Source of the DNA: an uncultured bacterium
GTDB lineage: Bacteria; Patescibacteriota; Minisyncoccia; Phycocordibacterales; PALSA-1337
Direction of reading: 5' to 3'
Assembly (NCBI GenBank): GCA_963848635.1
Contig: CAWKEA010000005.1
Coordinates: forward strand, 257,526 to 321,525
DNA length: 64,000 nucleotides
This document shows positions 7,904-64,000 of this stretch, in pieces. The notes under the pieces were generated by a model. It searched no databases and had not been told where the DNA came from. It saw nothing but the letters and a program-made list of their open reading frames with translations. Positions within the stretch are counted from its first letter, which is position 1, and each line of letters starts with the position of its first letter. The translations under genes and the position numbers were made by a program.

Positions 7904-9026
7904 TTATAGCACAAATTTCAAATAATTTTCTCGATTGACGATTTCAAATGATGAACCCGGATAACTTTCCAAGAATTTTTGTGGCCTTGGTGCTTTGCCA
8001 CTCCACTTGAATTCATACGCCTTGAAAGCGCCGTCTTTTTCTTCCACCAAATCTATTTCCTTTTGCTCGTACGTTCTCCAAAAATATCGATTAGCAAATA
8101 TGTTCTGGCATGAATTTTTCTTGAGTCGCTCTATGAACATGAAATTTTCCCATAGTGCGCCGATATCATTTCTATTTTCCATGTCGCTAAATTGCGCCAA
8201 CAAAGCGTTACGTACGCCGTTATCATAAAAATAGTATTTCTTTTTTCCTCGTATCTCGTTTCTAAGGTTCCTTTTCAAGGCAGACAACGATACGATGATA
8301 AAACCTTTTTCCAAGACATCTACGTATTTTTCGATCGTCCTGACGTTGGTATTCAAATTCGTCGCAAGTTCTGTCAGCGATACTTCAGACCCTACTTGAA
8401 GTGCAAGCAATTTAACCAGATCAACGAGGGTCTTTGATTTTTTGATATTGTCGAGTGCAAGAACATCTTTGAGAAGATACGAATCCACGATTTCATTCAG
8501 CATTGTTATTTTCTTTTGATTATCTTCAGTCAAAAATACGTCCGGATAAGAACCGTACACGAGAAATTGGCCAAGTTTTTGCCGTATATCAAACTCGCTA
8601 TAGTCCTCTACCAATTCCATCTGCGCAAAAGGATAAATAATGATGGTATTTTTTCTGCCAGTTAACGGCTCTCCGATCTGATTTGACAGGTCAAAGCTCG
8701 AGGAACCGGTTACAATAACTTTGATTCCTGGAATTTGATCCACTATTATTTTCAATCCTTGCCCTACGTTGGGTATGTGTTGGGCTTCGTCTATTGCGAT
8801 AAGATCAAGGCCTGCCGCATATTGTTTTATCTTTTCGAAATCATTTGATCCTAATACTCTCTTGGACTCTTATATTTTCCCCGGAATCTAGCCTGTATTT
8901 AAGCTTTGTTTCTTGCAAAAAAGAGTTAAGAATCGTGGTCTTTCCCACCCTCCTTGGGCCGTACATAACCAGAACTTTGTTGGGCAACAATAATGGCTCT
9001 ATTGAGCTGTAAAAACGTTTAATCAT
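7904..9026 (-). pseudogene. COG1373-type AAA+ ATPase (AAA_14 + DUF4143), disrupted by a frameshift near 8845-8870
   Basis: The N-terminal piece 8841..9026 carries Walker A (LVMYGPRRVGKTT). The C-terminal piece 7904..8755 (VIVTGSSSFDL...) continues in another frame. The alternate frame across 8756-8840 reads GSNDFEKIKQYAAGLDLIAIDEAQHIPNVGQGLKIIVDQIPG, bridging the two pieces. Confidence 0.6.
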
Positions 9027-9113: not shown

Positions 9114-10889
9114 TTATATCCCCTGATTCAACAGATTCCTCGTGGCAGGACCACAACGCCGAGCGGGTGAAAGACCGTTCGCTGTTTGATACTCTTCAAC
9201 AGCGGCCTTTGTAGCAGGCCCGAAATAGCCAGTCGCAGAGCTCGTGAGGTATCCGTCCTTTATCAAACGCTGTTGGAGAGCAACTACATCTGGATCAGAC
9301 TGACCAATCTTATTCATGCCTTCATAAAGATAATTATTAAAGGTATATGAAGTAGATGAAGTATTAACTATGCCTTGAGACGGCACAGGCGTCGCTGTGG
9401 GCATGCAGACAAGGCCGGCGGGACAATTGGAGGCGACTGTGGATGAAGAAGCCCCCAACGAGGCCGATGAAAAATTGCCTGTCCAAAAGTACTGCTTTAT
9501 AGAAGAGCCAGCAGAGTTCGAGAACGAGATAATGACAGGCAATGGCATGCTTTCGGAGCCTGTCATCGTGTATACCGCCGTGTAAGGACCACTGCCGGAC
9601 CCATTGACCGATACTGTCGAATTGTTGACCGACACTGAAGGATTGATAATGCTCTGGTTCGCATTGAATCCGATCGTCAGAGAATTACTACCGACAAGGA
9701 AGCTGTTGCTCTGATTTCCCGAAGAAATGGAAAAAGAAGAAAGCGCGAGAGGAATCGAAAGCGTCGAGGAGACGTTTGAAGAAACGCTCACATACAGAAC
9801 ATTGCATTGATTGTTTGTACTGCAGACATTTATGTCCGAGCTACCGACACCGATAGCATTCAACGTCAAGATGTTTCCATTTAGGTTCGGTTTCACGACG
9901 CTCGGATTCGAATTGTTCGAGACATAATATTGCCCTGTATTGCTTCCGGAAAGCGAAACCACCTGATTCTGCCCTGGTGCCAGATTGACGTTGCTCGGAT
10001 TAAACGTAATCAATGAAGAAACAGATGTATTGGATACCGACCCTCCTGCTGGATTCGAATAAGAATTTATCGTGCCGCATTCTCCATCCGACTGGCATAC
10101 TGTTATAGTAGAGCCGCCAGCAGAAAGTCCGGTAACGATCACGTTGTCTCCGCTGACTGTTACCGATACTGAAGATGGATTCGTATTTTGCGAGATAGAA
10201 AATGGGCCAAGGCCAGATATTGTTATGGTTTGACTCTGACCAACCGTCAAGTTTGCGACACTTGAACTTAAAGAAAAAGATGAAACCGGCGACGACAAGA
10301 CACTTATGTTTATGGGCTGACAGTCATTGTTCGCATCACAGACAGTTATTGTGACTGTACCTAAGTTATCATTAGCCGTTATTACAACCGTATTCCCAAA
10401 TATGGTCCCGATAGCTACGGCTGGATTCGTATCGCCTGAAATATGTAATGCTCCAACAGCGTTGTTTGCGGTCACACTTCCGCTCTGCCCCGCACCCATG
10501 TTCAATACAATTTGGCTTAAAGACAGACTGCCTGATGAGCCCGAATTCACTGGCCAATACGAAGAAGAAGATTGCGCCCCGTCAACAACCGCATATACTG
10601 GAGCGCTTCCAGGAATACCGTACGTTCCGGCATTGATCGTACTAGATAGATAGCCGCTTGAATTCGTCAGTCCCAGGCTGACGTACCCTGTCGAAGACGT
10701 AGCAGAAGTATAATAAAGCGTTACTGCGGCTTCTGGGTCAGCGCCATACACAGTGACTTGCACGGAATTGCCAGCAATAGCGGACAAAGTGAGAGAAGGA
10801 GTCGATGCGGCAGATACCTTTAAAAAACCAACAAACAAAAACAATACGATCATCAAAGAAGACAGGATTATATGTTTACTTTTTCTCAT
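9114..10889 (-). CDS. secreted S/T/N-rich surface protein with Ig-like repeats and C-terminal peptidoglycan-binding domain
   Basis: N-terminal signal/TM MRKSKHIILSSLMIVLFLFVGFLKVSAAST, long low-complexity S/T/N/G-rich beta-repeat region, and a C-terminal PG_binding_1-like domain (...SDPDVVALQQRLIKDGYLTSSATGYFGPATKAAVEEYQ...). Confidence 0.75.
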   Translation of the reverse strand: MRKSKHIILSSLMIVLFLFVGFLKVSAASTPSLTLSAIAGNSVQVTVYGADPEAAVTLYYTSATSSTGYVSLGLTNSSGYLSSTINAGTYGIPGSAPVYAVVDGAQSSSSYWPVNSGSSGSLSLSQIVLNMGAGQSGSVTANNAVGALHISGDTNPAVAIGTIFGNTVVITANDNLGTVTITVCDANNDCQPINISVLSSPVSSFSLSSSVANLTVGQSQTITISGLGPFSISQNTNPSSVSVTVSGDNVIVTGLSAGGSTITVCQSDGECGTINSYSNPAGGSVSNTSVSSLITFNPSNVNLAPGQNQVVSLSGSNTGQYYVSNNSNPSVVKPNLNGNILTLNAIGVGSSDINVCSTNNQCNVLYVSVSSNVSSTLSIPLALSSFSISSGNQSNSFLVGSNSLTIGFNANQSIINPSVSVNNSTVSVNGSGSGPYTAVYTMTGSESMPLPVIISFSNSAGSSIKQYFWTGNFSSASLGASSSTVASNCPAGLVCMPTATPVPSQGIVNTSSTSYTFNNYLYEGMNKIGQSDPDVVALQQRLIKDGYLTSSATGYFGPATKAAVEEYQTANGLSPARRCGPATRNLLNQGI

Positions 10890-15518: not shown

Positions 15519-17798
15519 ATGGCAAAAAAGAAAAACGGCAAGGACAAAAAAGAGAACGGATCATCGTTCGTCAACGAGCTCAAGACAGAAACACTGCAGG
15601 CAGTACTATCGATCATATTTCTAGTGGCAGGCATACTGACTGCTCTGGCCAAATTCGACAAAGCAGGCTGGGTCGGAAACGTCTTTTACCACTATGCTCA
15701 TACCTTGTTCGGTGTGGGCTATTTTCTCCTTCCGCTCATATGCATCATCCTCGCTACAGCGTTCTTGCGGGGCATACGGCAAAGATTCACCTTCTGGAAA
15801 CTGATCGGCGGATTGCTATTCTTGCTCTCCGGCCTCGGCCTGGTTGACCTTGTCTTCAAGGACGAGGGCGGCATCATCGGCCACTATGTGTCGAGCCCTC
15901 TCATATCGCTCGTCGACGTATACGCCTCCGCGGCGATCCTCATCGCGTTAGTCGCCATCTCTCTTCTCATCACATTCGAGACAGGCGTCACATTTGGAAC
16001 CTTAGCATTTTGGAAGCAAAAGGACGGCGATGAAAAGAAGAAGATGAAAAAAGAGCCAGCCTCGGATGACTCGGACGTAGACGAGATGGTGGAGGAAGCC
16101 GAAAAAAAGCTCGATGGCGACAAGCAAAAAGACGACGACAAAGAGGAAAGAGCAACGCCGATTCCGCCACAGCCAAAAAAAGCGGAAAAAAAGAAGGCGG
16201 ACGATGAAGAGGATTTTGCCATGGCCGCAAACACGAGGAGCATGAAGCCGTTCACTCCCCCGCCGCTCTCGCTCCTTGAAAAAGACAGCGGCCGGCCGGA
16301 GACCGGCGACATCAAGGCGAATGCGAATATCATAAAGAGGACGTTGCAGAATTTCGGCATAAGCGTGGAGATGGACGAGATATCGATCGGACCTTCGGTG
16401 ACGCGATATGCTTTGAAACCTGCTGAAGGCGTCAAGCTGTCGCGCATAACCGCGCTCAGCAACGACTTGTCTCTGTCCTTGGCGGCACATCCGATACGCA
16501 TCGAGGCGCCTATACCAGGAAAGAGCCTCGTCGGCATAGAGATACCGAATACTTCAAAGACGACTGTCGGCCTTGCCACGATTCTCGGTTCCGAAGAATT
16601 CCAGCGGTCTGAAAAGCCCCTGCTCATCTCTCTCGGAAAATCGATCACGGGAGCTTCTCATTTCACCAACCTGGCCAAAGCGCCGCATATGCTCGTAGCC
16701 GGCACCACCGGCTCGGGCAAATCAGTCATGATACACGCTGTCATCACTTCCCTGCTCTACCGCAATTCGCCCGAGGATCTGAAGTTCATCATGATAGACC
16801 CAAAACGCGTCGAATTGACGCTCTATAACAAAATTCCCCATCTTTTGACGCCGGTCATAACAGATGCGAAAAAAGCTATTTTGGCCTTGAAATGGGCTGG
16901 CAAAGAGATGAGCCGAAGATACGATATACTCGAAAAATCCTCGGCCCGAGACATCGAGTCATATCATAAAAACGTCCTCGACCCGGCGATCGAAAAAGCC
17001 ATAGCCAAAGTCAAAAGCCAAAAGGCAAAAGGCACAAGCGAAGATGGGAACGGGGATGAAGGGAAATTCCCCGAAACGATGCCGTATATCGTCATCGTGA
17101 TCGATGAATTGGCTGATATCATGCAGGCGTATCCGAGAGAGCTGGAAAGCGCCATAGTCCGTCTGGCCCAGATGAGCCGCGCCGTGGGCATCCATCTGGT
17201 CCTATCGACCCAAAGGCCCTCGGTCAACGTCATAACAGGCCTCATAAAAGCGAATATCCCGACGCGTGTGGCGTTACAGGTCGCTTCGCAGATAGATTCG
17301 CGCACTATCCTCGACCAGCCTGGAGCGGAAAAACTGCTCGGTGCCGGCGATATGCTCTATCTCGGCGCGGATATGTCAAAACCAGTGCGCCTACAATCGG
17401 CGTATATATCAGAAAGCGAAGTGAAGAAAGTGACCAAGTATCTCGCTGATACATACAAAGACGAGATCATGGGCGAAATAAACCTCTCAGGGCCGCAGAG
17501 CGAGCCGGGTCAGGACGCCGTTTTCTCGGCCAATCTCGATGATGAGACGCTCGAAGACGACGATATGTATGAGGACGCACGCCTCGCCGTAGTTTCCGCC
17601 GGCAAAGCTTCGACATCGTACCTCCAGCGCAAGCTCGGCGTCGGCTATTCGCGCGCGGCAAAATTGATGGACATGCTCGAGGAACGCGGCGTCATCGGAG
17701 CGGCGAACGGATCAAAACCGAGAGAGGTGATGGGTGCGGCTGTGGCGAGCGAAGATTCCTTGATCGACACAACAGAACCGAACGATGAGGCAATTTAA
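15519..17798 (+). CDS. ftsK: DNA translocase FtsK/SpoIIIE
   Basis: N-terminal TM helices, Walker A GTTGSGKSVMIHAVITSL, the characteristic IVIDELADIM and LVLSTQRPSVNVITGLIKANIPTRVALQVAS segments, and a C-terminal gamma domain (YLQRKLGVGYSRAAKLMDMLEERGVIG). Confidence 0.92.
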   Translation: MAKKKNGKDKKENGSSFVNELKTETLQAVLSIIFLVAGILTALAKFDKAGWVGNVFYHYAHTLFGVGYFLLPLICIILATAFLRGIRQRFTFWKLIGGLLFLLSGLGLVDLVFKDEGGIIGHYVSSPLISLVDVYASAAILIALVAISLLITFETGVTFGTLAFWKQKDGDEKKKMKKEPASDDSDVDEMVEEAEKKLDGDKQKDDDKEERATPIPPQPKKAEKKKADDEEDFAMAANTRSMKPFTPPPLSLLEKDSGRPETGDIKANANIIKRTLQNFGISVEMDEISIGPSVTRYALKPAEGVKLSRITALSNDLSLSLAAHPIRIEAPIPGKSLVGIEIPNTSKTTVGLATILGSEEFQRSEKPLLISLGKSITGASHFTNLAKAPHMLVAGTTGSGKSVMIHAVITSLLYRNSPEDLKFIMIDPKRVELTLYNKIPHLLTPVITDAKKAILALKWAGKEMSRRYDILEKSSARDIESYHKNVLDPAIEKAIAKVKSQKAKGTSEDGNGDEGKFPETMPYIVIVIDELADIMQAYPRELESAIVRLAQMSRAVGIHLVLSTQRPSVNVITGLIKANIPTRVALQVASQIDSRTILDQPGAEKLLGAGDMLYLGADMSKPVRLQSAYISESEVKKVTKYLADTYKDEIMGEINLSGPQSEPGQDAVFSANLDDETLEDDDMYEDARLAVVSAGKASTSYLQRKLGVGYSRAAKLMDMLEERGVIGAANGSKPREVMGAAVASEDSLIDTTEPNDEAI

Positions 17799-18383: not shown

Positions 18384-18902
18384 ATGTCTACTAAAATCAC
18401 AAAAACAAAGAAAAAAGAGGCCTCGATCGATGACGGATTTTCTACAAAAGCCGATGTCAAAGAGATCGTTAGAAATGCCATCAACGAACTGACAATGATT
18501 ATCGGGGATTCTTTTGGAAAGATGGAGAAATCGATGAATGCTCGATTCGATGAAGCTGATGAGAGATTTGACGAAATGGATTCGAAGTTCAAACTGATTG
18601 ACGAGAGGTTCGATCGGATCGATGAGAAGTTCGTTCTGATTGATGAGAAGTTCGTTCTGATTGATGAGAGATTCGAGCGGATCGATGAGAGATTCGAGCG
18701 GATCGATGAGAAGTTCGTTCTGATTGACGAGAGATTCGACGAGATAGATAGACGGTTCGAAGAAGTCGACTTGAAATTCGACGGTGTAACAAATCGAATC
18801 CAGGGGCTTTGGAATGCTTTTGATTCTCACACCCTCGACTGTGTCAAACGCGACGAGCACGATAGATTAGAAAAGAGAGTGCGGGTATTGGAAACAGCTT
18901 AA
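18384..18902 (+). CDS. coiled-coil protein built from 11 tandem heptads (DE[KR]FxxI), N-terminus resembling RecA N-terminus
   Basis: Protein is ...DERFDEM DSKFKLI DERFDRI DEKFVLI DEKFVLI DERFERI DERFERI DEKFVLI DERFDEI DRRFEEV DLKFDGV... The DNA at 18558-18788 is 11 consecutive 21-bp units, several identical (gatgagaagttcgttctgatt). The N-terminus MSTKITKTKKKEASIDDGF parallels the RecA N-terminus [18 protein letters not shown]. Confidence 0.6.
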   Translation: MSTKITKTKKKEASIDDGFSTKADVKEIVRNAINELTMIIGDSFGKMEKSMNARFDEADERFDEMDSKFKLIDERFDRIDEKFVLIDEKFVLIDERFERIDERFERIDEKFVLIDERFDEIDRRFEEVDLKFDGVTNRIQGLWNAFDSHTLDCVKRDEHDRLEKRVRVLETA

Positions 18903-18930: not shown

Positions 18931-20034
18931 ATGTCAAAGAAAATCAAGGAAACAAAGGAAAAATCAGCCTCGATCGAAAGCCATCGCGACCCGACCGACA
19001 ATATAAGGGAGACCCTGAATGCTATCCGCGGAAAATTCGGCGATGACGCCATCATGAAGCTCGGCGACAAGCCGCATGTCAATGTTGACGCCATCTCGAC
19101 TGGCTCCATAGGCCTTGATGCCGCTCTTGGCGTGGGTGGAATGCCGCGCGGACGCATCATTGAGGTATTTGGCCCGGAATCATCCGGAAAGACCACCCTT
19201 ACCCTGCATGTGATTGCAGAGGCTCAAAAGAAGGGCGGCATTTGCGCGTTTATCGACGCAGAGCATGCCATGGACCCGGAATATGCGGCCAGGCTTGGCG
19301 TCAAAACAGATGAATTGCTCATTTCCCAACCAGATACAGGCGAACAGGCTCTCGAGATCGTCGATTCGCTCGTCCGTTCCGGCAAGCTCGACGTCATCGT
19401 CATAGACTCGGTGGCCGCTCTCACGCCAAAAGACGAGATCGAGGGCGACATGGGAGCGTATCACGTCGGCAAGCAGGCCCGCCTCATGTCTCAGGCATTG
19501 CGCAAGCTCACCGCCATAGTGGCCAGGTCAAAGACGATCGTCATATTCATCAACCAGATCCGCATGCAGATAGGCGTCATGTTCGGCAATCCCGAGACGA
19601 CGCCTGGCGGCAAAGCGCTCAAGTTCTATACGTCTGTGCGTCTCGATATACGCCGCATAGCACAGATAAAGAAAGGCGACGAGGTCATGGGCGGACGCGT
19701 CAGGGTCAAGGTAGTCAAGAACAAAGTCGCCGCTCCCTTCCGTCAAACAGAATTCGATCTCATGTATAACGAAGGCATCTCAAAGGAGGGCGAGATCATT
19801 GCTCTTGGCGAAAAGATGGAGATATTGGCAAAATCTGGCAATTCGTATAAATATGGCGAGCTCACTCTCGGCCGCGGCTATGATGCTACCCGCCAGTTTT
19901 TAAAGGAAAACAAGGAAGTTCGAGAAGAATTACTGACAAAGATCCGTGCTCGATTGAATGAAGGCATCACTGTCGGAAAGAATGATGCGAATAGCAAATC
20001 AGGCGGAGAAAGCACGTCATCGAGCGAGGAATGA
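18931..20034 (+). CDS. recA: recombinase RecA
   Basis: [20 protein letters not shown] (Walker A), [78 protein letters not shown]. Confidence 0.95.
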
Positions 20035-21303: not shown

Positions 21304-21525
21304 TTATCTGACCACGTATGGCAATAAACCCATGAATCGCGAGCGTTTGACCGCGACTGCGAGCTGTCGCTGGCTCTTTGCTGATACGCCAGTGCGCTTG
21401 CGGGATATGAGGCGGCCATACGGATTGATGAATTTTTTGAGGATCTCTGTATCCTTGTAATCGATGAACCGTATATGGTTTTTAGTGAAGTAGCATTCTT
21501 TGTTCATGGTTTTGAGTAGATTCAA
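21304..21525 (-). CDS. rpsR: 30S ribosomal protein S18
   Basis: [50 protein letters not shown] matches the S18 signature. Confidence 0.9.
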
Positions 21526-24300: not shown

Positions 24301-25824
24301 TTATTTCCTCATGAAAAGCGGCGCGTCCGGCATCTTGTTTTCCTTTACCAAAGAGATTATTTTTTCTGCAGTCTGCGGCAAAAATGGCTTCAGCATGGTG
24401 CCGATCATATCCAGACGCGCCAACAATTCCTGTATATCCTTTTTAGCTTCGGCCTTGTCGACTTTTATCTTTTTGAACGGCTCGCGCTCTTGGATGATCT
24501 TGTCGGTGGCCGCGATAAAGTCCCAGATCGCCTTTGAAGACCTTTGTAAGTCGTATGAGTCGAGGCCTGCCATCTGCTCTTTGTATGTCTTGTCCATCTC
24601 CTCCGAAGCGGCAATATCCTTGGCTATCTTTTCATCAAAGACGATGCCGTTCGACGTCGCCATTTTCATGACGCGCGAGACGAGGTTGCCAAGACCGTTA
24701 GCCAAACCTGCATTGTAGGCGTCTTTGAACTTTTCTGGCGTGAATGGGCTGTCTTCGAAAGGATGGAGCTCACGCAACGCAAAATAGCGCAAAGCATCGG
24801 TACCGTATTCTTTGACCAATTCGAATGGATCGACGGTATTGCCGAGGGATTTCGACATTTTGATGCCGCCATCGCCCGTGACGAAGCCGTCGATGACGAT
24901 GGTCTTTGAGGGAGGCAGGCCAGCCGCCATGAGCATTGACTGCCACATCGCGGATTGCTGGCGGAGATTGTCTTTGCCGCAATATTGGACGACGCCGCCG
25001 GAATCGATCCACCATTTTTTGAAGGAATTGTCATTTACCGCATTCCCGTCTTCACTTTTGAACTTTGAGTTTTGAGTTTTGAGTTTGTTATCCGGCCATC
25101 CAATGCACGAGACATAATTGACGAGAGCGTCAAACCACACATACATGACCTGATCGGGATCGCCGGGAACATCTATCCCCCACGACATCTTTGACTTGAG
25201 CCGCGATATGCTGAAATCCTCGAGGCCGCGACCGACAAAGGCTTTTATCTCATTGAAACGAAAATCAGGGATAACCAAAGAAGGATTTGACGTGTATAAG
25301 TCGAGGAGTCTCTGCTGGAACGCGCTGAATTTGAAAAAATAGTTCTCTTCTTTTATCATCTCGATCTCCTGTAGCGGATGGAGCGGGCAACGGCCGTCGA
25401 CGAGCTCTGAATCTGTCTTTTCGAGCTCACAGCCGACGCAATATTTTATCGAGTAGTTTTTCTTGTATATAAAGCCGTTCTTTTGGACGATGCGCCAAAA
25501 TTCCTGGGCGGCAAAGACGTGATATGCATCAGTCGTCCGAACGAAATTCGCGTCTGGAAGGACACCAAGCACAGACAGCAATTCCCGAAATTTCTTTGAC
25601 TTTTCATCGACATACGCCTGTGGCGTCAGATTCTGCGCCGCCGCAGTCTTGTCTATCTTTGCCCCATGCTCGTCGGTGCCGGTATTCAGAAAGACCTCAC
25701 AGCCAGCGAGCTTTTTAGCACGCGCGACGGCGTCGGCCCGGATGAGCTCGACGGCAAAGCCGACATGGGGATCGGCGTTCACGTACGGCAAGGTGGTTGT
25801 TATGTAGAATGGAGGTTTTTTCAT
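24301..25824 (-). CDS. metG: methionyl-tRNA synthetase
   Basis: Class I aaRS. TLPYVNADPHVGFA (HIGH-region variant), CVGCELEKT zinc knuckle, KMSKSLGN, and anticodon-binding helical C-terminus. Confidence 0.9.
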   Translation of the reverse strand: MKKPPFYITTTLPYVNADPHVGFAVELIRADAVARAKKLAGCEVFLNTGTDEHGAKIDKTAAAQNLTPQAYVDEKSKKFRELLSVLGVLPDANFVRTTDAYHVFAAQEFWRIVQKNGFIYKKNYSIKYCVGCELEKTDSELVDGRCPLHPLQEIEMIKEENYFFKFSAFQQRLLDLYTSNPSLVIPDFRFNEIKAFVGRGLEDFSISRLKSKMSWGIDVPGDPDQVMYVWFDALVNYVSCIGWPDNKLKTQNSKFKSEDGNAVNDNSFKKWWIDSGGVVQYCGKDNLRQQSAMWQSMLMAAGLPPSKTIVIDGFVTGDGGIKMSKSLGNTVDPFELVKEYGTDALRYFALRELHPFEDSPFTPEKFKDAYNAGLANGLGNLVSRVMKMATSNGIVFDEKIAKDIAASEEMDKTYKEQMAGLDSYDLQRSSKAIWDFIAATDKIIQEREPFKKIKVDKAEAKKDIQELLARLDMIGTMLKPFLPQTAEKIISLVKENKMPDAPLFMRK

Positions 25825-28583: not shown

Positions 28584-28616
28584 ATAATTTCTAATTGACC
28601 TAATTTCTAATTGACC
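28584..28616. repeat. left 28-bp inverted repeat (tandem TAATTTCTAATTGACC units) flanking the four-helix-bundle gene
   Basis: aatttctaattgacctaatttctaattgacc matches the reverse complement of 28969-28998 at 27 of 28 positions. Confidence 0.75.
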
Positions 28617-28622
28617 TAAAAA

Positions 28623-28967
28623 TTACTTCATTTTCTTGAATATGGCATTGAAGATTAGGTTCAACTCTTTTGCTTCAATCCACAATAATCTAGCCTTATC
28701 TCTCGTGCTTGGTGCCGCAGTGACAATCATTCTTAAAAAATGCTTTACTTCCCTTGATTCTTTTTTACATATACCGATCTTATGCTTGAAATCCGCTCTG
28801 CTCTCAGCATCATCAGCCTCACAATAATTTGCCCCAACAGAGGTGCCGCATTTCACCAACTGCCTTATAAGCGGCCTTGTTACGTCATCTTTATCCAATT
28901 TTCTACAAAAATTTATTATTGATTCACCGAACTTTGCAGTTCTTTCCTCAAGATCAAACTTTTTCAT
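28623..28967 (-). CDS. four-helix-bundle protein (TIGR02436 / '23S rRNA intervening-sequence protein' family)
   Basis: 114 aa. LIRQLVKCGTSVGANYCEADDAESRADFKHKIGICKKESREVKHFLRMI fits the family pattern (L..Q.......N..E......S...F.....I...E..E....L). The gene lies in the loop between the two IRs. Confidence 0.65.
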   Translation of the reverse strand: MKKFDLEERTAKFGESIINFCRKLDKDDVTRPLIRQLVKCGTSVGANYCEADDAESRADFKHKIGICKKESREVKHFLRMIVTAAPSTRDKARLLWIEAKELNLIFNAIFKKMK

Positions 28968-28968
28968 T

Positions 28969-28998
28969 AGTAATTAGAAATTAGGTCAATTAGAAATT
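28969..28998. repeat. right inverted repeat; overlaps the glyQS stop codon (encodes ...KISN*)
   Basis: taattagaaattaggtcaattagaaatt. The GlyRS terminal codons AAA ATT TCT AAT TGA are the reverse complement of 28986-29000. Confidence 0.75.
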
Positions 28999-30342
28999 TT
29001 ATCTGAAATATATTTAACTAAATCCTTTTCACTTATCCTCTCCTGCTTGCCAGAGTCCCTGTCGCGGACGGTCACACCTGCGTTCTTTTCGATGGTATCG
29101 AAATCGATCGTGACGCAGAACGGCGTGCCGATCTCGTCTTGGCGGCGATAGCGCTTGCCGATGTTGCCGTTGTCGTCGAATTCGACGGCTTTGAATTCTT
29201 TTTTGAGCGCTGCAGTAAACCTCCTTGGCCTTTTTGACCAATTCAGGTTTGTTTTTGAGCAAAGGAAATACGGCGACTTTGACCGGAGCCACTGACGGTG
29301 CGAGTCTGAGATATACCCTCTTCTCGCCGCCCATCTCGTCTTCGACATATGCCGAAGTGAGGACCGCCAAGACTGCCCTGTCTACGCCGACTGACGGCTC
29401 GATGACATGAGGGATGAAGCGTTGCTTGGTCTCTTCGTCGAAATATGAGAGATCGACGCCAGAGGTAGCGCTATGCGCTTTGAGGTCGAAGTCAGTGCGG
29501 TATGCAAGGCCATATAATTCCTTTTGACCAAAAGGATAGTCGAATTCTATATCAGTCGTCTTCTTTGAATAGTGCGAAAGCTCTTCTTTTGCATGATCGC
29601 GGAGATGGATCTTTTCCTTGGGCAAGCCGATCTCAAGGCACCAATCCATGCGGATCTTTTCCCAGATGTCGAATTGTTTCTCCCAGTCTTTCGGATCTAT
29701 GAAGTACTCGACTTCCATTTGCTCGAATTCGCGCGCACGAAAGAGATAATCGCGCGGAGCGATCTCGTTTCGGAATGCTTTGCCTATTTGTGCCAGGCCG
29801 AACGGTAGCTTTGGATGGAAGGAATCCATGATGTTCTTGAAATTGACGAACATGCCCTGCGCCGTTTCAGGACGGAGGTACGAGATGGAGTCTTCGCTCT
29901 CGACCGCGCCGACGGTCGTCTTGAACATCATGTTGAATTGACGCGCTTCACCGAGGGCGCCGCCACAATCCGGGCATTTCTTTGCGGCCAAAAGAGCAGG
30001 ATCGATCTGATCCTCACGAAAACGATGCTTGCATTTCTTGCACTCAACGAGCGGATCAGAAAATCCCCCGACGTGGCCAGAGGCGACCCATGCCTTGGAG
30101 TTCATCAGAATCGCCGCATCCATGCCAAACATATCGTCGCGATCCTCGACAAAGCGCTTCCACCAGGTGGCTTTTATATTATTTTTAAGAGCGACTCCAT
30201 ACGGCCCATAATCCCAAGTACCAGCTAAACCTCCATATATCTCCGAGCCTTGATAAATGAAGCCCCGGCGCTTGCAGAGAGAAATGATCGCTTCCATGAT
30301 GTCTGCCCCGTTGTTCTCCTTTTCTTTTTTCATAAACAGCAT
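28986..30342 (-). CDS. glyQS: glycyl-tRNA synthetase (alpha2 type), with an apparent single-base frameshift at ~29205-29225
   Basis: [49 protein letters not shown] (GlyRS N-terminus). The 437-aa ORF turns to nonsense after ...KAKEVY. The alternate frame continues [43 protein letters not shown]...[15 protein letters not shown], the conserved GlyRS anticodon-binding C-terminus (ORF 28986..29348). Confidence 0.85.
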
Positions 30343-35197: not shown

Positions 35198-38100
35198 TTA
35201 TAAGACGAGGTCGAACTTGATGCCAGCTGTGGCATCAACTACTGCACCATTTACAACAATCTCAATATTCTTCAACAATACCGCCTTCACGAGCTCTTCC
35301 TTGTTCCTTTCGATGAAAGCCTCCCCCGCCTTGTCCGCGGCAAAGACCTTGAGGATCGGCCGATCCTGTATCGTGAGCTTTTGCTCCTTGCGCCTATCCT
35401 GGATGGCGCGCATGAGGTCGCGCAGTTCCCCTTCTTCTTTCAATTCAGGCGTTATGTTCAGATCAAGCTCAACTTCTGTGCTGATACTTCCATCAACAAC
35501 GACTTCCTTCACATTGACTTCTTCGTTGATCAAATCAAGCAAGTTTTTGTCTTCAATTTTGAACTTTGCATTTTGCACTTTCAATTTTGAGAGCGGCTGT
35601 CTGACGTTTATCTTTGCTTTTGAGCGAGCTTCGAGGCCAAGGGATGCTATGTCGCGGACAAGCTTCATATTCTCAATCAGATCTTTGTCGATTGCACTGA
35701 GAGCGGGCCAACTCTCGAGATGCACGCTTTCACGGCCGCCTTTCAGTCTCATGTAGACGTCTTCGGCAAGGAACGGCATGAACGGCGCTAGTAATTTTGA
35801 TACTTCAAGGAAAACGAGGCGCGTCGTTGCGAGAGCGGCCGACTTATCAGCTTCATCTTCCCCCTTGAACCTGTCTCGCGAGCGACGCAAATACCATGTA
35901 GAAAGGTCATCGATAAAATCTGCAAACGGCCTCGTCGCCTTGTCGAGCTCATATTTCTCCATTCCTTCAGTCACCTCCTTGTTCAATTCATTCAGGCGAG
36001 AGACGATCCATCGGTCAAGGATGTTTTTGCTTGCATCGCTTCGCGACGGAATGGTCTCGCTCACACGAAATTCTTCTGTTGAAGAATTTCTCCGTTCCGC
36101 GCCGTCGCGCTCCACGAGGTTCGCTCGACCCATTCCGGTCGCTTCGCCTGCATACAATTCATAGAACGTCACGACATTCAAAAGCCTGCCGATGTGCTTC
36201 TTGACCACTTCATCGACGCCCTTTTCTGAAAAACAGAATTCCTGGGCACGAACAGCAGGAGAAGACAAGAGATAGTAGCGCAAGGCATCGGCTCCATATT
36301 TCCGGACGACAGGCATGAGATCAGGGAAATTATTCTTTGATTTGGACATCTTTTGCCCGTCTTCAGCCAGAATGATGCCATTGACAACGACATTTTTATA
36401 TGGCGCTCGGCCAAAAAGCGCCGTACCGAGCACGATCATGCTATAGAACCATCCGCGCGTCTGATCGACACCTTCAGCAATGAAATCCGCAGGATATCCC
36501 CTACTTTTCCCCAACTTATCCCCAGTTATCTTTGCGAGGAATCCCCTCGCTGGATCGAATTCTTTTGTATCAAAAGGATAATGCGCCTCGCCGAACGGCA
36601 TCGAGCCTGATTCGAACCAGCAATCGAAGACTTCCTCGACGCGCTTTAGTTTTTCGCCGCCCGGCAGATGCAATTCGATATCATCGATGTATGGCCTGTG
36701 CAAATCGATCTCGAAATCGTCATTGTGCGGCAGTGGCACAAAATCGAGCTTTTCAGGAGCGGCGTTATCGAAATAATGGAGCTTGCGGTTTCTGAGATTG
36801 AGGGTCCCTTTGTCATCGAGCCCGAGCGAAACAGATGCCAGCATAAAAGCCGGCGCATCGTGAGTGACGATAAGGATGTTCTTGCCTACATACCTCCTCT
36901 CCATGTCATAGATAAAACTGCCGACCCGCTTTCGGATATCGGCGTAGTTCTCCCCCTTTGGAAGGCGAATAGAAAAGCGCTTCTCATGCGGGAAAGCTTC
37001 CATGAACTCATCGAATGGCTTGCCGTCATAGATGCCGGAATCCAATTCGTGAAGACGATCGTCGACGATGATATTTTTCTTCGGAAAATCCAGTCCAGCC
37101 GCAAGGATATCTGCAGTCTCTTTTGTGCGGACAAAAGGCGAGACAAAGATGATATCGATCTTCTTGTCGGCAAAGAATGCCGCCGCAGCCTTCACTTGCG
37201 CCTTTCCTTTCTCTGTCAGATGCTTTGGGTCGGTTGCTTTCGCGCTCATGACGCCGAGCGTGTTATTCTCCGCTTCGCCATGACGCATGATGTAGTAGGA
37301 GTTTTTGGCTTGCGAATGCTTCCTGAGGTCGTTGATCGAACCGAAGCAATGGATAGAGCCTGACTTTTCGCCGCGCCAGACCGGGATCGGAGCGCCCCAA
37401 AAACGCGAGCGGGAGATGGCCCAGTCGCGAGCTCCCGCGAGCCAGTTGCCGAAACGTCCTTCGCCGACTTCTGGCGGAGTCCAACTGACTTTGCCGTTCG
37501 CGGCAACGAGCTTGTCCTTGAAATCGCTGACGCGCACGAACCATGACGACGCGGCATAATTGAGGAGCGGCGTGTCGCAACGCCAACAATGCGGATACGA
37601 GTGCGTCATATTCTCCTTTGCAAAGAGAAGGCCTTTTTCTTGGAGCCACTGGATGACTTTTATATCCGTGCGCAAATGCGCGTCCTTGTCTTCCGGCGTA
37701 TCCTTTGGCTTTACTTTCAAACCTGAAAAATCAACGACTTCTTTTTTGAACGTGCCGTCGATATTGACGTGCTGAACGAACGGCAGATTTTCCTTTTGTC
37801 CGAGCGCATAGTCATCAGCGCCGAACGCAGGCGCGATATGGACGATGCCGGTGCCGTCGGTCGTCGTGACAAAATCGGCGGCATATACTTTCCAGCCGTT
37901 TTCGCGATTCTTGAGACTTGTGTCTTTTGAATAATAGTCAAAGAGGGGCACGTAGGATTTGCCGACGAGGTCGGAACCCTTCATCTCTGCGACGATTTCA
38001 TATGCTTCTTTTTTGAAAGTTGCCTCGAGCCTTTCTTTTGCACAAATATAAAAAACTTGATTCTCTCCGCCAACGACAACAGGAACACTTTTTCTACCCC

Positions 38101-39010
38101 CTTCGGTGGAGCGAAAAAGTTTCCTCTCGTCTTGTGTCGCGGCTGACGAAGCGTCCTGTGCCGGTGCATCATTTGAGCTTTCGATTTTTTGTTCAGGCCC
38201 TCCGACTTTCACTTTCACATAATCAATATCCTTGCCTACAGCCAATGCGACATTGCCGGGCAATGTCCACGGCGTCGTCGTCCATGCCAAGAGATACGTA
38301 CCTTCATCGTCCCCGTCTGCATCTTTGAGTTTTGAGTTTTGAGTTTTGAGCTCGAACTTCACATACACTGAAATGTCCTTTATGTCTTTATACCCCTGCG
38401 CGACCTCAAAATTCGATAGCGTCGTCTCGCAGTGCGGACAGATCTGCATCGGCTTGAAGCCCTCATAGACGAGCCCTTTTTCATGCAATTGCTTGAAAGC
38501 CCACCAGACGCTCTCGGTGTAGCTCGAGTTCATGGTCTCGTAATCGTTCTCCATGTCCGCCCAGCGGCCGAGTCGCGGGATGATCTCCTTCCAATCGTTG
38601 ACGTATCGGTGCACCGCTCTTCGAGCGGCAGAATTGAAATTTTTGATGCCAAAATCGATGATGTCTTTCTTGCTCTTGAGCCCGAGTTCCTTTTCAATCA
38701 GATTCTCGACCGGCAAGCCGTGACAATCCCAACCCCAGCGACGGCGCACGCTGTAGCCTTGCATCGTCTTGTAGCGAGGAACTGCGTCTTTTATCGAAGT
38801 CGGCAAAACGTGGCCAAAATGCGGCAATCCCGTAGCGAATGGCGGCCCGTCATAAAAGACGAACTTGCCGCGCGGAGCTTCCCTATCGACGCTTTTCTTA
38901 AAAATATCGTTCTCCTTCCAATATTTTAAAATGCGCTCTTCGCGCTCTTGTGCTGGCGTTTTTGCGACCACCTTGTCGCCAGTTTGGCCTGCATTCTGAT
39001 TTGTTGTCAT
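35198..39010 (-). CDS. ileS: isoleucyl-tRNA synthetase with a ~200-aa histidine-phosphatase (PGAM-like) domain inserted in place of the zinc-knuckle segment
   Basis: FYDGPPFATGLPHFGHVL (HIGH), GWDCHGLPVE, KMSKSKNN, and a C-terminal anticodon-binding domain. Residues ~565-765 read YYIMRHGEAENN...LTEKGKAQV...IIFVSPFVRTKETADIL...DDRLHELDSG...ILIVTHDA, matching histidine phosphatase branch-1 motifs. They lie between WRGEKSGSIHCFGSINDLRKHS and DLHRPYIDD...EVFDCWFESGSMP. Confidence 0.9.
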   Translation of the reverse strand: MTTNQNAGQTGDKVVAKTPAQEREERILKYWKENDIFKKSVDREAPRGKFVFYDGPPFATGLPHFGHVLPTSIKDAVPRYKTMQGYSVRRRWGWDCHGLPVENLIEKELGLKSKKDIIDFGIKNFNSAARRAVHRYVNDWKEIIPRLGRWADMENDYETMNSSYTESVWWAFKQLHEKGLVYEGFKPMQICPHCETTLSNFEVAQGYKDIKDISVYVKFELKTQNSKLKDADGDDEGTYLLAWTTTPWTLPGNVALAVGKDIDYVKVKVGGPEQKIESSNDAPAQDASSAATQDERKLFRSTEGGRKSVPVVVGGENQVFYICAKERLEATFKKEAYEIVAEMKGSDLVGKSYVPLFDYYSKDTSLKNRENGWKVYAADFVTTTDGTGIVHIAPAFGADDYALGQKENLPFVQHVNIDGTFKKEVVDFSGLKVKPKDTPEDKDAHLRTDIKVIQWLQEKGLLFAKENMTHSYPHCWRCDTPLLNYAASSWFVRVSDFKDKLVAANGKVSWTPPEVGEGRFGNWLAGARDWAISRSRFWGAPIPVWRGEKSGSIHCFGSINDLRKHSQAKNSYYIMRHGEAENNTLGVMSAKATDPKHLTEKGKAQVKAAAAFFADKKIDIIFVSPFVRTKETADILAAGLDFPKKNIIVDDRLHELDSGIYDGKPFDEFMEAFPHEKRFSIRLPKGENYADIRKRVGSFIYDMERRYVGKNILIVTHDAPAFMLASVSLGLDDKGTLNLRNRKLHYFDNAAPEKLDFVPLPHNDDFEIDLHRPYIDDIELHLPGGEKLKRVEEVFDCWFESGSMPFGEAHYPFDTKEFDPARGFLAKITGDKLGKSRGYPADFIAEGVDQTRGWFYSMIVLGTALFGRAPYKNVVVNGIILAEDGQKMSKSKNNFPDLMPVVRKYGADALRYYLLSSPAVRAQEFCFSEKGVDEVVKKHIGRLLNVVTFYELYAGEATGMGRANLVERDGAERRNSSTEEFRVSETIPSRSDASKNILDRWIVSRLNELNKEVTEGMEKYELDKATRPFADFIDDLSTWYLRRSRDRFKGEDEADKSAALATTRLVFLEVSKLLAPFMPFLAEDVYMRLKGGRESVHLESWPALSAIDKDLIENMKLVRDIASLGLEARSKAKINVRQPLSKLKVQNAKFKIEDKNLLDLINEEVNVKEVVVDGSISTEVELDLNITPELKEEGELRDLMRAIQDRRKEQKLTIQDRPILKVFAADKAGEAFIERNKEELVKAVLLKNIEIVVNGAVVDATAGIKFDLVL

Positions 39011-51393: not shown

Positions 51394-52377
51394 TCATCTC
51401 GCCGACCACCTCGCGAAGATGCCGCACGGCAGTAGCCTGGCGGTCGCGCTTTGTCCTAGTTTCGCCGGACCTTTTTGGGTCTCTTCTATCGTCAACTCGC
51501 CTGCCTCGATCGTACCGCCGAACTTATCCTGCAAAATTTTCAAATTATTCGCATAAGCGATTGGTGAATATCCTGCCGCGTATCCGTTTATCAAAAAGAA
51601 AAGCGGCTTGGCTGAGAGAAGCTTCACGCAATCATTGAAAAGCGGCACGAAATCTTCTTCTATCTTCCAAACCTGTCCTTTGTCGCCACGGCCAAATGAC
51701 GGCGGATCCATGATGATGGCATCGTATCGGCGCTCACGGCGCAATTCCCTTTTCACGAAATCGCGCGCATCGTCGAGCATCCAGCGGATCGGTTTTTCTG
51801 CGAGACCGGAAAGCTCCGCGTTCTCCTTTGCGCGAGTGATGGCGACTTTCGACCCATCAATGTGGACAACAGACGCGCCCTCAGCTGTACACGCGAGCGA
51901 TGCGCCGCCGGTGTAGCCAAAAAGATTAAGCACCTCTAGCTTTGAAGCTTGACCCCCAATTTTGGGCTTTGAGTTTTGAGTTTTGAGTTTTTCCTTCATC
52001 CATTCCCAATTCGCTTTTTGTTCAGGAAAAAGGCCGACATGCTTGAATGGCGTCGGCTCGACAAAGAATTTGAGACCGGCAAAACTGATAGGCCATTTTT
52101 CAGGCGTGCCTGCCTTCAACTTCCATCTGCCTTTCGAGCTTGCCTTGCCCTTTACATCTTCACCATCGCTTTCACTGGCGACACGGCTAAAAGTCCCGTC
52201 TGCCTTTGCCCATTCATCGGGCGATAGCTTCTTTTGCCACAAAGCCTGCGGATCGGGGCGCGACAAGACATATTTACCGAACCTCTCCAGCTTTTCCCCG
52301 TCGCCGGAATCGAGCAGTTCGTAGTCTTTTTCGGCGGACGTCGCAAGAATTTCGTTTTGCTTCCAAGATTGATTCAT
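51394..52377 (-). CDS. class I SAM-dependent rRNA methyltransferase (RlmI/RlmK-like)
   Basis: VLNLFGYTGGASLA (motif I), IIMDPPSFG (motif IV DPP). N-terminal PUA-like region. Confidence 0.75.
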   Translation of the reverse strand: MNQSWKQNEILATSAEKDYELLDSGDGEKLERFGKYVLSRPDPQALWQKKLSPDEWAKADGTFSRVASESDGEDVKGKASSKGRWKLKAGTPEKWPISFAGLKFFVEPTPFKHVGLFPEQKANWEWMKEKLKTQNSKPKIGGQASKLEVLNLFGYTGGASLACTAEGASVVHIDGSKVAITRAKENAELSGLAEKPIRWMLDDARDFVKRELRRERRYDAIIMDPPSFGRGDKGQVWKIEEDFVPLFNDCVKLLSAKPLFFLINGYAAGYSPIAYANNLKILQDKFGGTIEAGELTIEETQKGPAKLGQSATARLLPCGIFARWSAR

Positions 52378-62958: not shown

Positions 62959-64000
62959 TTATCCATTCAATTTCTCCTCGATCTCCATCAACCTGTTATA
63001 TTTGCACGATCTCTCACTACGGATGAGCGAGCCGGACTTTATGTATTCGCACGAGAGGCCGACTGCAAGGTCGGCGATGAATGTGTCAATCGTCTCCCCG
63101 GAGCGATGTGAGATGAACGGGATCCAGCCCTGCTTTTTTGTCAGCTGGATAGCCTCGATCGTCTCGGTCAATGAACCGATCTGATTCACCTTGATGAGGA
63201 CCGAGTTGATCGCTTTCTTTTCGACAGCTATCTGTATCCTCTTTACATTCGTCACAGTCAAATCATCGCCCACGATCGTCACTTTGTCGCCAAGCTGAGC
63301 TGTCAGGTTTGCAAAGCCATCCCAATCGTCTTCGGCAACGCCGTCTTCGATAGAGATGATAGGATATTTTTTAACGAGGCCTTCGTACCAGCCGACCATC
63401 TGCGCGCTCGTCATCTCTTTTTTCTTGCCCGCGATCCGCAAATGATACGCTCCTTCTTCAAAAAAACTCGACGCGGCGGCGTCTATGCCGATCTTGACGT
63501 TGTCCGTAGAGTATCCGGCGTCTTGTATCGCTTGAACGATCACATCAAGGCCTTCTTCGTTCGAACCGAGCTGTGGCGCGAAGCCTCCTTCGTCGCCGAC
63601 AGAGATGACGTCTCCTTTGCCCTTTAATATCTTTTTCAAGGAAGAGATGATTTCAGCGCCTGCGCGGACTTTTTCCTTGAATATGCTTATCCCTTCTGGT
63701 ATAAGCATGAATTCCTGGATATCGAGCCCGCTATCCGCATGCTTGCCGCCATTGATGATATTAAAAGCCGGATGAGGCAATTTGAAATCTTTATTGCCTG
63801 CGAGATCGCCGAGATGTTCATAGAGCTCGATGCCCTTTTCATGTGCATGTGCTTTGGCGAAGGCCAGAGAAACGCCAAGAATGGCGTTCGCCCCGAGCTT
63901 TGATTTGTTCGGCGTGCCATCGAGCTCGATCATGGCTTCATCGAGAGATTTTTGGTCGAATTCTTTGCCTTGCACGAGCCCGCTTATCTCAACGTTGACG
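62959..64000 (-). CDS. eno: enolase (partial; N-terminus beyond window end)
   Basis: ...IELDGTPNKSKLGANAILGVSLAFAKA...INGGKHAD...GDEGGFAP...IKVNQIGSLTETIEAI...SHRSGETIDTFIADLAV. The frame continues open to position 64000. Confidence 0.92.
   Translation of the reverse strand, partial: VNVEISGLVQGKEFDQKSLDEAMIELDGTPNKSKLGANAILGVSLAFAKAHAHEKGIELYEHLGDLAGNKDFKLPHPAFNIINGGKHADSGLDIQEFMLIPEGISIFKEKVRAGAEIISSLKKILKGKGDVISVGDEGGFAPQLGSNEEGLDVIVQAIQDAGYSTDNVKIGIDAAASSFFEEGAYHLRIAGKKKEMTSAQMVGWYEGLVKKYPIISIEDGVAEDDWDGFANLTAQLGDKVTIVGDDLTVTNVKRIQIAVEKKAINSVLIKVNQIGSLTETIEAIQLTKKQGWIPFISHRSGETIDTFIADLAVGLSCEYIKSGSLIRSERSCKYNRLMEIEEKLNG

Follow-up and report, generated by a model that had tools for sequence, protein, structure and literature searches.

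The stretch of DNA considered here (the window) comprises 64,000 nucleotides (nt) of contig CAWKEA010000005.1 from an uncultured member of the Patescibacteria and has a G+C content of 48%. An assignment to Patescibacteria/Paceibacterota agrees with the names that its homologues bear. The feature under study is a short tandem heptamer repeat that lies in frame within the gene for methionyl-tRNA synthetase (MetRS). This host gene occupies positions 24301..25824 on the minus strand and is an intact open reading frame (ORF) of 507 amino acids in which the KMSKS motif is present; it scores 373 bits against TIGR00398 (metG), for which the cut-off is 336, and a database protein (P0001) is 100% identical to its product. 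A 41-nt string quoted in the original prediction, which had placed it at 25052-25092, is found one base to the right, at 25053-25093. Tandem Repeats Finder reports an array at 25056-25086 with a period of 7, 4.4 copies, 87% matches and the consensus TTTTGAG. This consensus is antisense to the gene, the sense strand of which reads (CTCAAAA)n and encodes the peptide KLKTQNSKFKSEDG; the ORF translation at the array (...GWPDNKLKTQNSKFKSEDGNAVNDNSFKKWW...) agrees with the one first proposed. The array proper belongs to a copy of an element of about 45 nt at 25042..25086 (minus strand, sense AAACTCAAAACTCAAAACTCAAAGTTCAAAAGTGAAGACGGGAAT, encoding KLKTQNSKFKSEDGN). The whole lineage-specific loop of the protein extends over 25024..25086 (minus strand, residues K247-S267), as delimited by orthologue alignment and by an empty site in a relative, L346, and its protein context is GWPDN-KLKTQNSKFKSEDGNAVNDNS-FKKWW.

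Comparison with orthologues identifies this segment as an insertion. The usual orthologue state of the loop is three residues long (GWPDD-QKK-FKKFW), compared with which the window protein has a net gain of 18 amino acids (54 nt), and the reading frame survives this gain, with conserved sequence read in frame 0 before and after the array. Of 120 aligned MetRS homologues, 119 lack the insert. Among the nearest relatives (80-83% identity), three (P0003, P0004 and P0006) have no insert and one (P0002) has an unrelated insert, while remoter homologues carry other inserts of 7 to 80 residues in the loop. Aligned to the solved MetRS structure PDB 4dlp, the insert falls in a gap that follows ...ALGYPD. 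An AlphaFold2 model of the window protein built with 60 homologues has a mean predicted local distance difference test (pLDDT) score of 90.3, and within residues 241-270 the means of successive 10-residue blocks are 68, 49 and 69, with residues 251-256 below 50; the insert segment is modelled as coil between two helices. As modelled, the insert is a disordered surface loop of an otherwise well-formed enzyme, and most likely has no role for that enzyme beyond providing an extra hydrophilic Lys-rich loop.

The main claim of the original prediction, that an in-frame (TTTTGAG)n copy resident in MetRS recurs in other genes, is borne out by several independent measures, all of which count copies over the 64-kb window. 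The sequence TTTTGAGTTTTGAG, with at most one mismatch, has 7 matches compared with 0.04 expected from shuffles, and these fall in three arrays, located in MetRS, in isoleucyl-tRNA synthetase (IleRS) at 38323-38350 and in an RlmI-like S-adenosylmethionine (SAM) methyltransferase at 51960-51991. A repeat search groups the same three arrays with a diverged copy near the C-terminus of IleRS at 35554-35600 (family D3). In a similarity scan of the 45-nt MetRS element against the window, in which ungapped matches were scored, the IleRS N-terminal copy matches at 36/45 positions and the RlmI-like, IleRS C-terminal and FtsK copies at 33/45 each; the best unrelated site reaches 28/45, and the maxima of 20 shuffles range from 24 to 28/45. 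Five in-frame copies are therefore recognized, one each in MetRS, the RlmI-like methyltransferase and FtsK and two in IleRS. More generally, period 7 dominates among the short tandem periods of the window at lags 4-14, with 4 patches as against 0-1 at each other lag, and the 64 kb hold three clean and two diverged heptamer arrays.

The copies in the other genes are arranged as follows. The IleRS gene (ORF 35198..39010; TIGR00392 ileS, 870 bits) contains a copy in its N-terminal half at 38309..38353 (minus strand) that consists of (CTCAAAA)3 CTCAAAG followed by ATGCAGACGGGGAC... and encodes ELKTQNSKLKDADGDDEG. The original prediction implied that its main entry, at 38321-38354, was in the RlmI-like gene, but that locus lies in IleRS. 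The methyltransferase ORF is at 51394..52377, where the element copy occupies 51946..51990 (minus strand) and encodes EKLKTQNSKPKIGG. The match to the RlmI-like copy had been described as having 4 mismatches, and it does so over about 35 nt (CA[C/A]TTTTG[AA/GG]CTTTGAGTTTTGAGTTTTGAGTTT[G/T]); the two copies are 81% identical over 47 nt. Two copies are older and diverged, namely the IleRS C-terminal copy at 35543..35587 (minus strand, sense AAATTGAAAGTGCAAAATGCAAAGTTCAAAATTGAAGACAAAAAC, encoding KLKVQNAKFKIEDKN) and the FtsK copy at 17007..17063 (plus strand, AAAGTCAAAAGCCAAAAGGCAAAAGGCACAAGCGAAGATGGGAACGGGGATGAAGGG, encoding KVKSQKAKGTSEDGNGDEG), which has the longest version of a tail that is discussed below. 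Neither of these two (35543-35587 and, in FtsK, 17007-17051), nor the shared tail, had been included in the prediction, which therefore under-counted the family.

The likeness among copies extends beyond the heptamers to a shared sense unit, AAA-(CTCAAAA)2-3-CTCAAAG-TTCAAAA-GTGAAGACGGGAAY. The flanks had been proposed for a check of shared sequence, and a common unit TTTTGRR-CTTTGAG was indeed found in the MetRS, RlmI-like and IleRS C-terminal copies, but not in the IleRS N-terminal copy. The IleRS C-terminal and MetRS copies both contain CAAAGTTCAAAA-TGAAGAC. The tail itself is not repetitive and encodes S/D-E/A-D-G-N/D; it reads AGCGAAGATGGGAACGGGGATGAAGGG in FtsK, AGTGAAGACGGGAAT in MetRS and, in the IleRS N-terminal copy, GCAGACGGGGAC, then a 3-nt deletion and then GATGAAGG. 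The tail is the strongest sign that the copies share a common descent.

This evidence bears on the alternative that each array originated independently, by slippage at native Lys-rich codons (AAA/AAG beside CTC or TTC), with the likeness between arrays arising from a favoured stop-free hydrophilic heptamer. All of the sites are natively Lys-rich, the empty MetRS site being CAGAAAAAGTTCAAAAAA; the IleRS site begins at a native GAGCTC, and the C-terminal site reads SKLKIKS in distant IleRS orthologues. Simple sequence repeats (SSRs) built of heptamers are also generically common, since (CTCAAAA)3 occurs 33 times in viral contigs while composition-matched stop-free control heptamers occur 40, 11 and 19 times, and heptamers are over-represented among bacterial SSRs generally (PMC4692102). 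Other features count against a local origin. The three recent copies share one imperfection, in that the array ends in CTCAAAG; YYCAAAAKTG is common to two copies; and the non-repetitive tail (GAAGAYGGGAAY / GAYGGGRAC..GATGAAGG) is common to three. A net insert of 54 nt is not obtainable by 7-nt slippage from an 18-nt empty site, and relatives have non-periodic blocks of 32 nt that are the same at two loci. An independent origin of each array is therefore regarded as improbable.

The same background governs how matches outside the window are read. Exact-pattern scans of genome and metagenome collections returned, among the matches listed, many that lie in frame in conserved genes. The idea that CTCAAAA is a "special" heptamer shared across phyla was considered and rejected, the control heptamers being about as frequent in viral contigs, and because of this equal frequency the cross-phylum matches were treated as a generic heptamer-SSR background.

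All five copies lie inside ORFs, and four of the five sites are in essential genes. The coding properties of the heptamer are revealing of how this is tolerated. The 21 nt of (CTCAAAA)3 encode L-K-T-Q-N-S-K, cyclically permuted, in all three sense frames and are free of stops, whereas the reverse orientation, (TTTTGAG)n, has TGA in every frame. Because the opposite orientation puts stops in all frames, only arrays in the CTCAAAA sense with a net length divisible by three persist in genes. This coding filter accounts for the single orientation that the five copies share relative to their host genes on whichever strand these lie; the FtsK copy is on the opposite DNA strand, yet is sense-oriented relative to its own gene. 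Since orientation follows the gene on either strand, it does not reflect a replication signal or a signal at the DNA level.

The peptide itself might instead be the object of selection, with the likeness in DNA as a consequence. Under such an explanation a basic-then-acidic module, [KL]K.Q(N/K).K.K.(E/A)DG, would be maintained, possibly as a flexible linker, as an interaction or localisation motif, or as a nucleic-acid tether on enzymes that handle tRNA or DNA. Consistent with this, every copy is read in the same frame, as is the tail in all three copies that have one; between the MetRS and FtsK tails the only differences are three synonymous ones (AGT/AGC, GAC/GAT and AAT/AAC); the FtsK and IleRS C-terminal versions are kept across a sub-clade; and nucleic-acid enzymes account for four of the five host sites. 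On the other hand, close relatives have in these loops either no such peptide or an unrelated one, disorder is predicted for the segment, and three perfect DNA heptamers indicate recent repetition at the DNA level and not convergence at the level of codons. One of the three tail frames contains a stop, and sharing of one frame by three copies is expected by chance at roughly 0.1-0.25. A functional peptide module thus has a low probability.

A regulatory or contingency role, whether as a phase-variable SSR, a programmed frameshift, an antisense promoter or a DNA signal of the uptake, Chi or KOPS type, is highly improbable. Phase variation classically acts on repeats whose unit length is no multiple of three, and the single orientation of all five copies relative to the gene could be taken to point to a signal. 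The hosts, however, are MetRS, IleRS, FtsK and an rRNA methyltransferase, essential genes among them, and the frame is kept, conserved MetRS sequence flanking the array in frame 0 at either end, which is not the profile of a phase-variable contingency locus. The RlmI-like array is of the same length in a strain diverged by 1.5%, which differs by 31 single-nucleotide polymorphisms over 2 kb. Programmed -1 frameshifting would entail a slippery X XXY YYZ sequence with structure downstream; here frame 0 continues, no structure is seen, and the site has no Rfam match at E <= 1. RNA and DNA folding of the five copies gave none better than shuffles (z from -0.12 to +1.82), and a repeat search of the window found no inverted partner of the heptamer copies. 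No promoter- or terminator-like site was found at the MetRS array, and an antisense promoter or terminator there was rejected on that ground. In addition, the motif occurs only as intragenic arrays oriented by gene and not by strand, as the FtsK copy on the other strand illustrates.

The distribution of the copies among orthologues is revealing of their relative ages. The IleRS N-terminal insert, like that of MetRS, is genome-specific, being absent from all IleRS orthologues at 56-73% identity, and the corresponding loop holds different inserts in other genomes. By comparison, the IleRS C-terminal segment (SKLKVQNAKFKIED) is kept in a sub-clade of about 70% identity (for example KLKIQSTKFKIED and KFKVQSSKFKVED, and QKLKIQSTKFKIED in P0126), and the FtsK segment is kept in relatives at 77-86% identity (for example VKTQKAKGKGEDG) but absent from P0246/L346. 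As these old copies are conserved in the sub-clade, the family is itself old and has received recent additions. The RlmI-like site is a naturally variable linker in which some family representatives have other peptides of 7-residue periodicity. The array at this site, the one copy compared between close strains, is identical in L158, a strain with 98.5% overall identity (31/2085 positions differ, with no indel), and its unchanged state argues against hypervariability.

Three syntenic relatives (L346, L121 and L347) were compared with the window at the DNA level. In L346 the MetRS site is empty (GGTTGGCCCGACGACCAGAAAAAGTTCAAAAAATTCTGG) and the FtsK loop is short. The MetRS loop of L121 is filled by an array of four AGTWCCK heptamers and, after it, five units of the complementary heptamer, and heptamers of the AGTWCCK type recur in UvrC-like and Ddl genes of that locus. 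In L347 the MetRS and FtsK loops are both filled by (AAAGTCG)n together with an identical 32-nt block, GACTCGGGACTCGGGACTTTCGACTCGGGACT. The inserts of L121 and L347 are palindromic, unlike the copies in the window. Each genome thus has a heptamer family of its own, uniform within the genome and different between genomes, and the same permissive loops have been struck repeatedly.

Further inserts occur in the same host proteins. A second IleRS loop (window 38048-38200, residues ~271-321) is an insertion hot spot in which homologues have from 0 to ~78 residues (P0007, P0126-P0130 and P0362); the window protein has a 45-residue insert there, ...DAPAQDASSAATQDE..., that resembles the MetRS insert of P0009. 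The peptides VIPAKAGI, SFPRKRES and RFRGND are found in the MetRS, IleRS and RlmI-like loops of several relatives and seem to derive from a further dispersed repeat family, probably palindromic, that is translated in frame. The IleRS protein (35198-39010) also contains, at residues ~568-740, an inserted histidine-phosphatase domain (PF00300, phosphoglycerate-mutase-like); all 120 of the closest homologues have it, which marks it as a clade-wide fusion.

A Pfam scan identified a cassette at 28585-28999 with a gene for a PF05635 '23S rRNA intervening-sequence protein' (ORF 28623..28967, minus strand). The gene lies between perfect 27-nt inverted repeats (28586-28612 / 28972-28998) that are roughly heptamer-periodic (TAATTTC/TAATTGACC units), and a possible 8-nt direct repeat, GATAAAAT, is present at both ends of the cassette. 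The cassette is absent from the same spacer between the aminoacyl-tRNA synthetase and M16 peptidase genes in L346, where the spacer is 9 nt long, and is at another site in L347. The main alternative explanation, which is rather unlikely, is that the MetRS array is the solo arm of a mobile hairpin with inverted heptamer arms. The full-length form of such a hairpin would carry in its loop a PF05635 gene, encoding an Avd-like four-helix bundle; gene-less hairpins and half-hairpins would be miniature derivatives mobilised in trans, and only the CTCAAAA half would survive in ORFs here, since the TTTTGAG half brings TGA stops.

In favour of this explanation, a PF05635 gene of L347 (8580..8891) lies between arms at 8510-8536 / 8890-8916 that are 93% complementary, and the arms of this cassette also make up the in-frame inserts of two loops, at 10731-10845 in MetRS and at 18456-18543 in FtsK. 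They form, in addition, a hairpin with no gene (21387-21474) that is about 90% identical to the cassette arm. The heptamer family of L347 is GAAAGTC/GACTCGG, and its positions also include 19463-19508. The MetRS insert of L121 is, likewise, an inverted pair of heptamer arrays, and the window cassette is itself polymorphic, as its absence from L346 and its different site in L347 attest. Among loci fetched by repeat pattern, a sample biased towards arrays, a repeat-masked profile search found 20 PF05635 ORFs, and 9/10 of those tested pass the Pfam PF05635 threshold. In this pattern-selected sample period-7 arrays lie on both sides of 12/20 PF05635 ORFs as compared with 147/2484 other ORFs (Fisher p = 2e-10). 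The flanking arms are inverted and comprise many different heptamers (L142, L163, L161, L239, L133, L148, L144, L090, L262, L055, L010 and L172). A second, independent sample was selected solely on homology to PF05635; there, 8-9/13 distinct loci (L350, L353, L354, L357 and L364 among them) have inverted arms built of heptamers of many different sequences. Inverted heptamer arrays on both sides are thus typical of PF05635 genes across unrelated contigs. An exact CTCAAAACTCAAAACTCAAAGTTCAAAA, the core of the MetRS array, is found in the arms of L148 and of L161.

Other observations count against it. The arms of the resident cassette (TAATTTC/TAATTGACC) are of a different sequence and are found nowhere else in the window; dispersed arrays match the cassette arms of their own genome in L347, but have no such match within these 64 kb. 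None of the five copies (0/5) has an inverted partner or fold, and the MetRS copy has neither a PF05635 ORF nor a partner arm. The shared tail (SEDGN...) is not arm-like. Elsewhere, 225/240 (CTCAAAA)n loci are solo arrays that have no PF05635 gene nearby, 15/240 being paired under a strict definition, and cassettes may simply insert into, or recruit, arrays that already exist; they may either create arrays or insert into them. The broader proposal, that heptamer arrays are not plain slippage products but the arms of widespread small hairpin mobile elements which the PF05635 protein recognises, maintains or mobilises, is put forward as a tentative and rather unlikely one. So too is its extension, equally unlikely, in which solo arms and gene-less hairpins colonise loops of essential proteins in frame in Paceibacterota and the MetRS array would be one such arm. 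In the literature library that was searched, no paper was found linking PF05635 genes to heptamer arrays.

Two further arrangements of these heptamers were noted. Metagenome loci (L177, L176, L156, L147, L124, L162, L210, L233, L187, L150 and others) contain a recurrent, longer composite, (CTCAAAA)2CTCAAAG[C/T]TCAAAAC[C/T]ACAACTTAAAACT, which reads KLKTQ(N/S)SKL..LKLKT in long ORFs of unrelated contigs and resembles the left arm and leader of PF05635 cassettes such as that of L142. In L044, L047, L106, L206 and L014 (Abditibacteriaceae and Chloroflexia), tight hairpins of the form (TTTTGAG)n, a gap of 4-15 nt and (CTCAAAA)n immediately precede start codons, among them those of der and coaE.

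Taken together, these observations lead us to favour, at about even probability, an explanation in which the MetRS repeat is passenger DNA, one copy of a small dispersed repeat that has been copied between Lys-rich loops. The element would be about 45-60 nt long and would consist of three to four CTCAAAA units, then CTCAAAG-TTCAAAA, then the tail RGYGMAGAYGGGRAY, and copying would have placed it, in frame, in surface loops of housekeeping proteins that tolerate insertion. New copies may arise by non-reciprocal copying between loci, through template switching or ectopic gene conversion, and the copying may be primed by A-rich lysine-codon microhomology such as AAAGTTCAAAA. This short sequence is present in the empty site of L346 and recurs both in the element of the window (CTCAAAGTTCAAAAGTG) and in the older copy at the IleRS C-terminus (GCAAAGTTCAAAATTG), and is a plausible microhomology for template switching. 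The likely donors are the older arrays that reside in FtsK and near the C-terminus of IleRS. Replication slippage would then homogenise the heptamers, and selection would remove copies that are antisense, out of frame or in structured regions.

Several points weigh against copying of a dispersed repeat. The copying mechanism was inferred and not observed, in which it differs from the insertion itself, the family, the loop location and the coding filter. Among 40 window ORFs scanned against Pfam, none was identified as a transposase, RAYT, reverse transcriptase or integrase, and no clean target-site duplication was found for the MetRS insert; TTCAAAA recurs in the element and at the native 3' junction and so brackets part of the insert, but the heptamer repeat itself contains this string, which makes it ambiguous. 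Part of what is counted as a "copy" in FtsK and at the IleRS C-terminus is native Lys-rich sequence, and some of the similarity may be compositional. Finally, the same-frame tails and their synonymous-only differences could reflect selection on the peptide instead.

Three other ORFs of the window have unusual features. An ORF upstream of recA (18384..18902), with no Pfam match, has eight tandem 21-nt units (GATTGATGAGAGRTTCGAKCG) at 18536-18766, which give a 7-residue periodicity. The enolase ORF (62959-63975) is without about 80 N-terminal residues of Pfam Enolase_N, and the ribonucleotide reductase ORF (59768-62086), as read here, has no called gene on record; these last two oddities may be due to different gene calls or local frame problems.

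Small repeats in essential genes are rare and instructive, as they reveal which loops of core enzymes tolerate arbitrary sequence, and the MetRS insert illustrates a route by which non-coding selfish or neutral DNA becomes protein sequence. The heptamer passes the coding filter only because one of its orientations is free of stops and every third unit restores the frame, a simple rule from which it can be predicted what repeat families are able to enter genes. Loops of MetRS, IleRS, FtsK and the methyltransferase are hit repeatedly in this clade of Patescibacteria, each genome having its own repeat family, and because the same loops are hit by genome-specific repeats, variation in protein length in these reduced genomes is partly repeat-driven. 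The link between PF05635 and heptamers, if true genome-wide, would provide a testable handle on two old unknowns, the spread of heptamer arrays and the function of the PF05635 family, and as a lead it has higher potential than the MetRS repeat.

In sequence type the window element belongs among the heptamer repeats known from cyanobacteria, Beggiatoaceae, Bacteroidetes and Xanthomonas, which include the published TAACTGA repeats (PMC4679880) and GGGNATC repeats (PMC4692102); no transmission mechanism was evident in the study of the former (PMC4679880). As in those families, the 7-nt units are genome-specific and form short dispersed arrays (2-6 or more units), and related heptamers are rarely arrayed. 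One orientation is stop-rich and the other translatable, TAACTGA reversed giving LSVISYQ and TTTTGAG reversed giving LKTQNSK. The published families, in contrast, are overwhelmingly intergenic, are under-represented in coding DNA and have been proposed to have regulatory or G-quadruplex roles, whereas the present copies are all intragenic (5/5) and lie in a Patescibacteria genome, although this genome is gene-dense and their location is thus only weakly informative. A second difference is that the window copies share a non-repetitive tail, which indicates that a composite unit was copied.

Heptamer repeats of this general kind, the short tandemly repeated repetitive (STRR) sequences, were reportedly described by Mazel et al. 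in 1990, and we know of no mechanism put forward since about that time for the spread of heptamer arrays in cyanobacteria, Beggiatoaceae and Bacteroidetes. The small dispersed repeats (SDRs) of Nostoc, which Elhai et al. are said to have described in 2008, are reportedly 21-27 nt long and mobile with no encoded transposase, occur within genes and within heptamer arrays, and show recent mobility by orthologue comparison. Compared by description only, the SDRs differ from the window element in that an SDR is not in itself an array of heptamers, and several SDRs are inverted repeats. PF05635 cassettes, which are intervening sequences bounded by a stem, offer another likeness, as the loop inserts of relatives use cassette heptamer arms and CTCAAAA/TTTTGAG arms bound PF05635 genes elsewhere; the MetRS copy, unlike these, is a single array, and the window cassette has other arms.

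Rickettsia palindromic elements (RPEs) are the classic case of small repeats that lie in frame in many housekeeping genes at positions compatible with the protein fold (PMC10969869). They are about 100-150 bp long and palindromic, while the window element is about 45-60 nt long and is made of tandem heptamers and a tail, with no inverted repeat or predicted fold; the inserts of L121 and L347 are palindromic and hence nearer to RPEs. In both cases a small dispersed repeat lies in frame in unrelated housekeeping genes of a reduced-genome bacterium, adds a conserved peptide and leaves the protein intact, and its presence or absence is polymorphic between orthologues. In way of working, RPEs are the closest analogue of the element found in MetRS.

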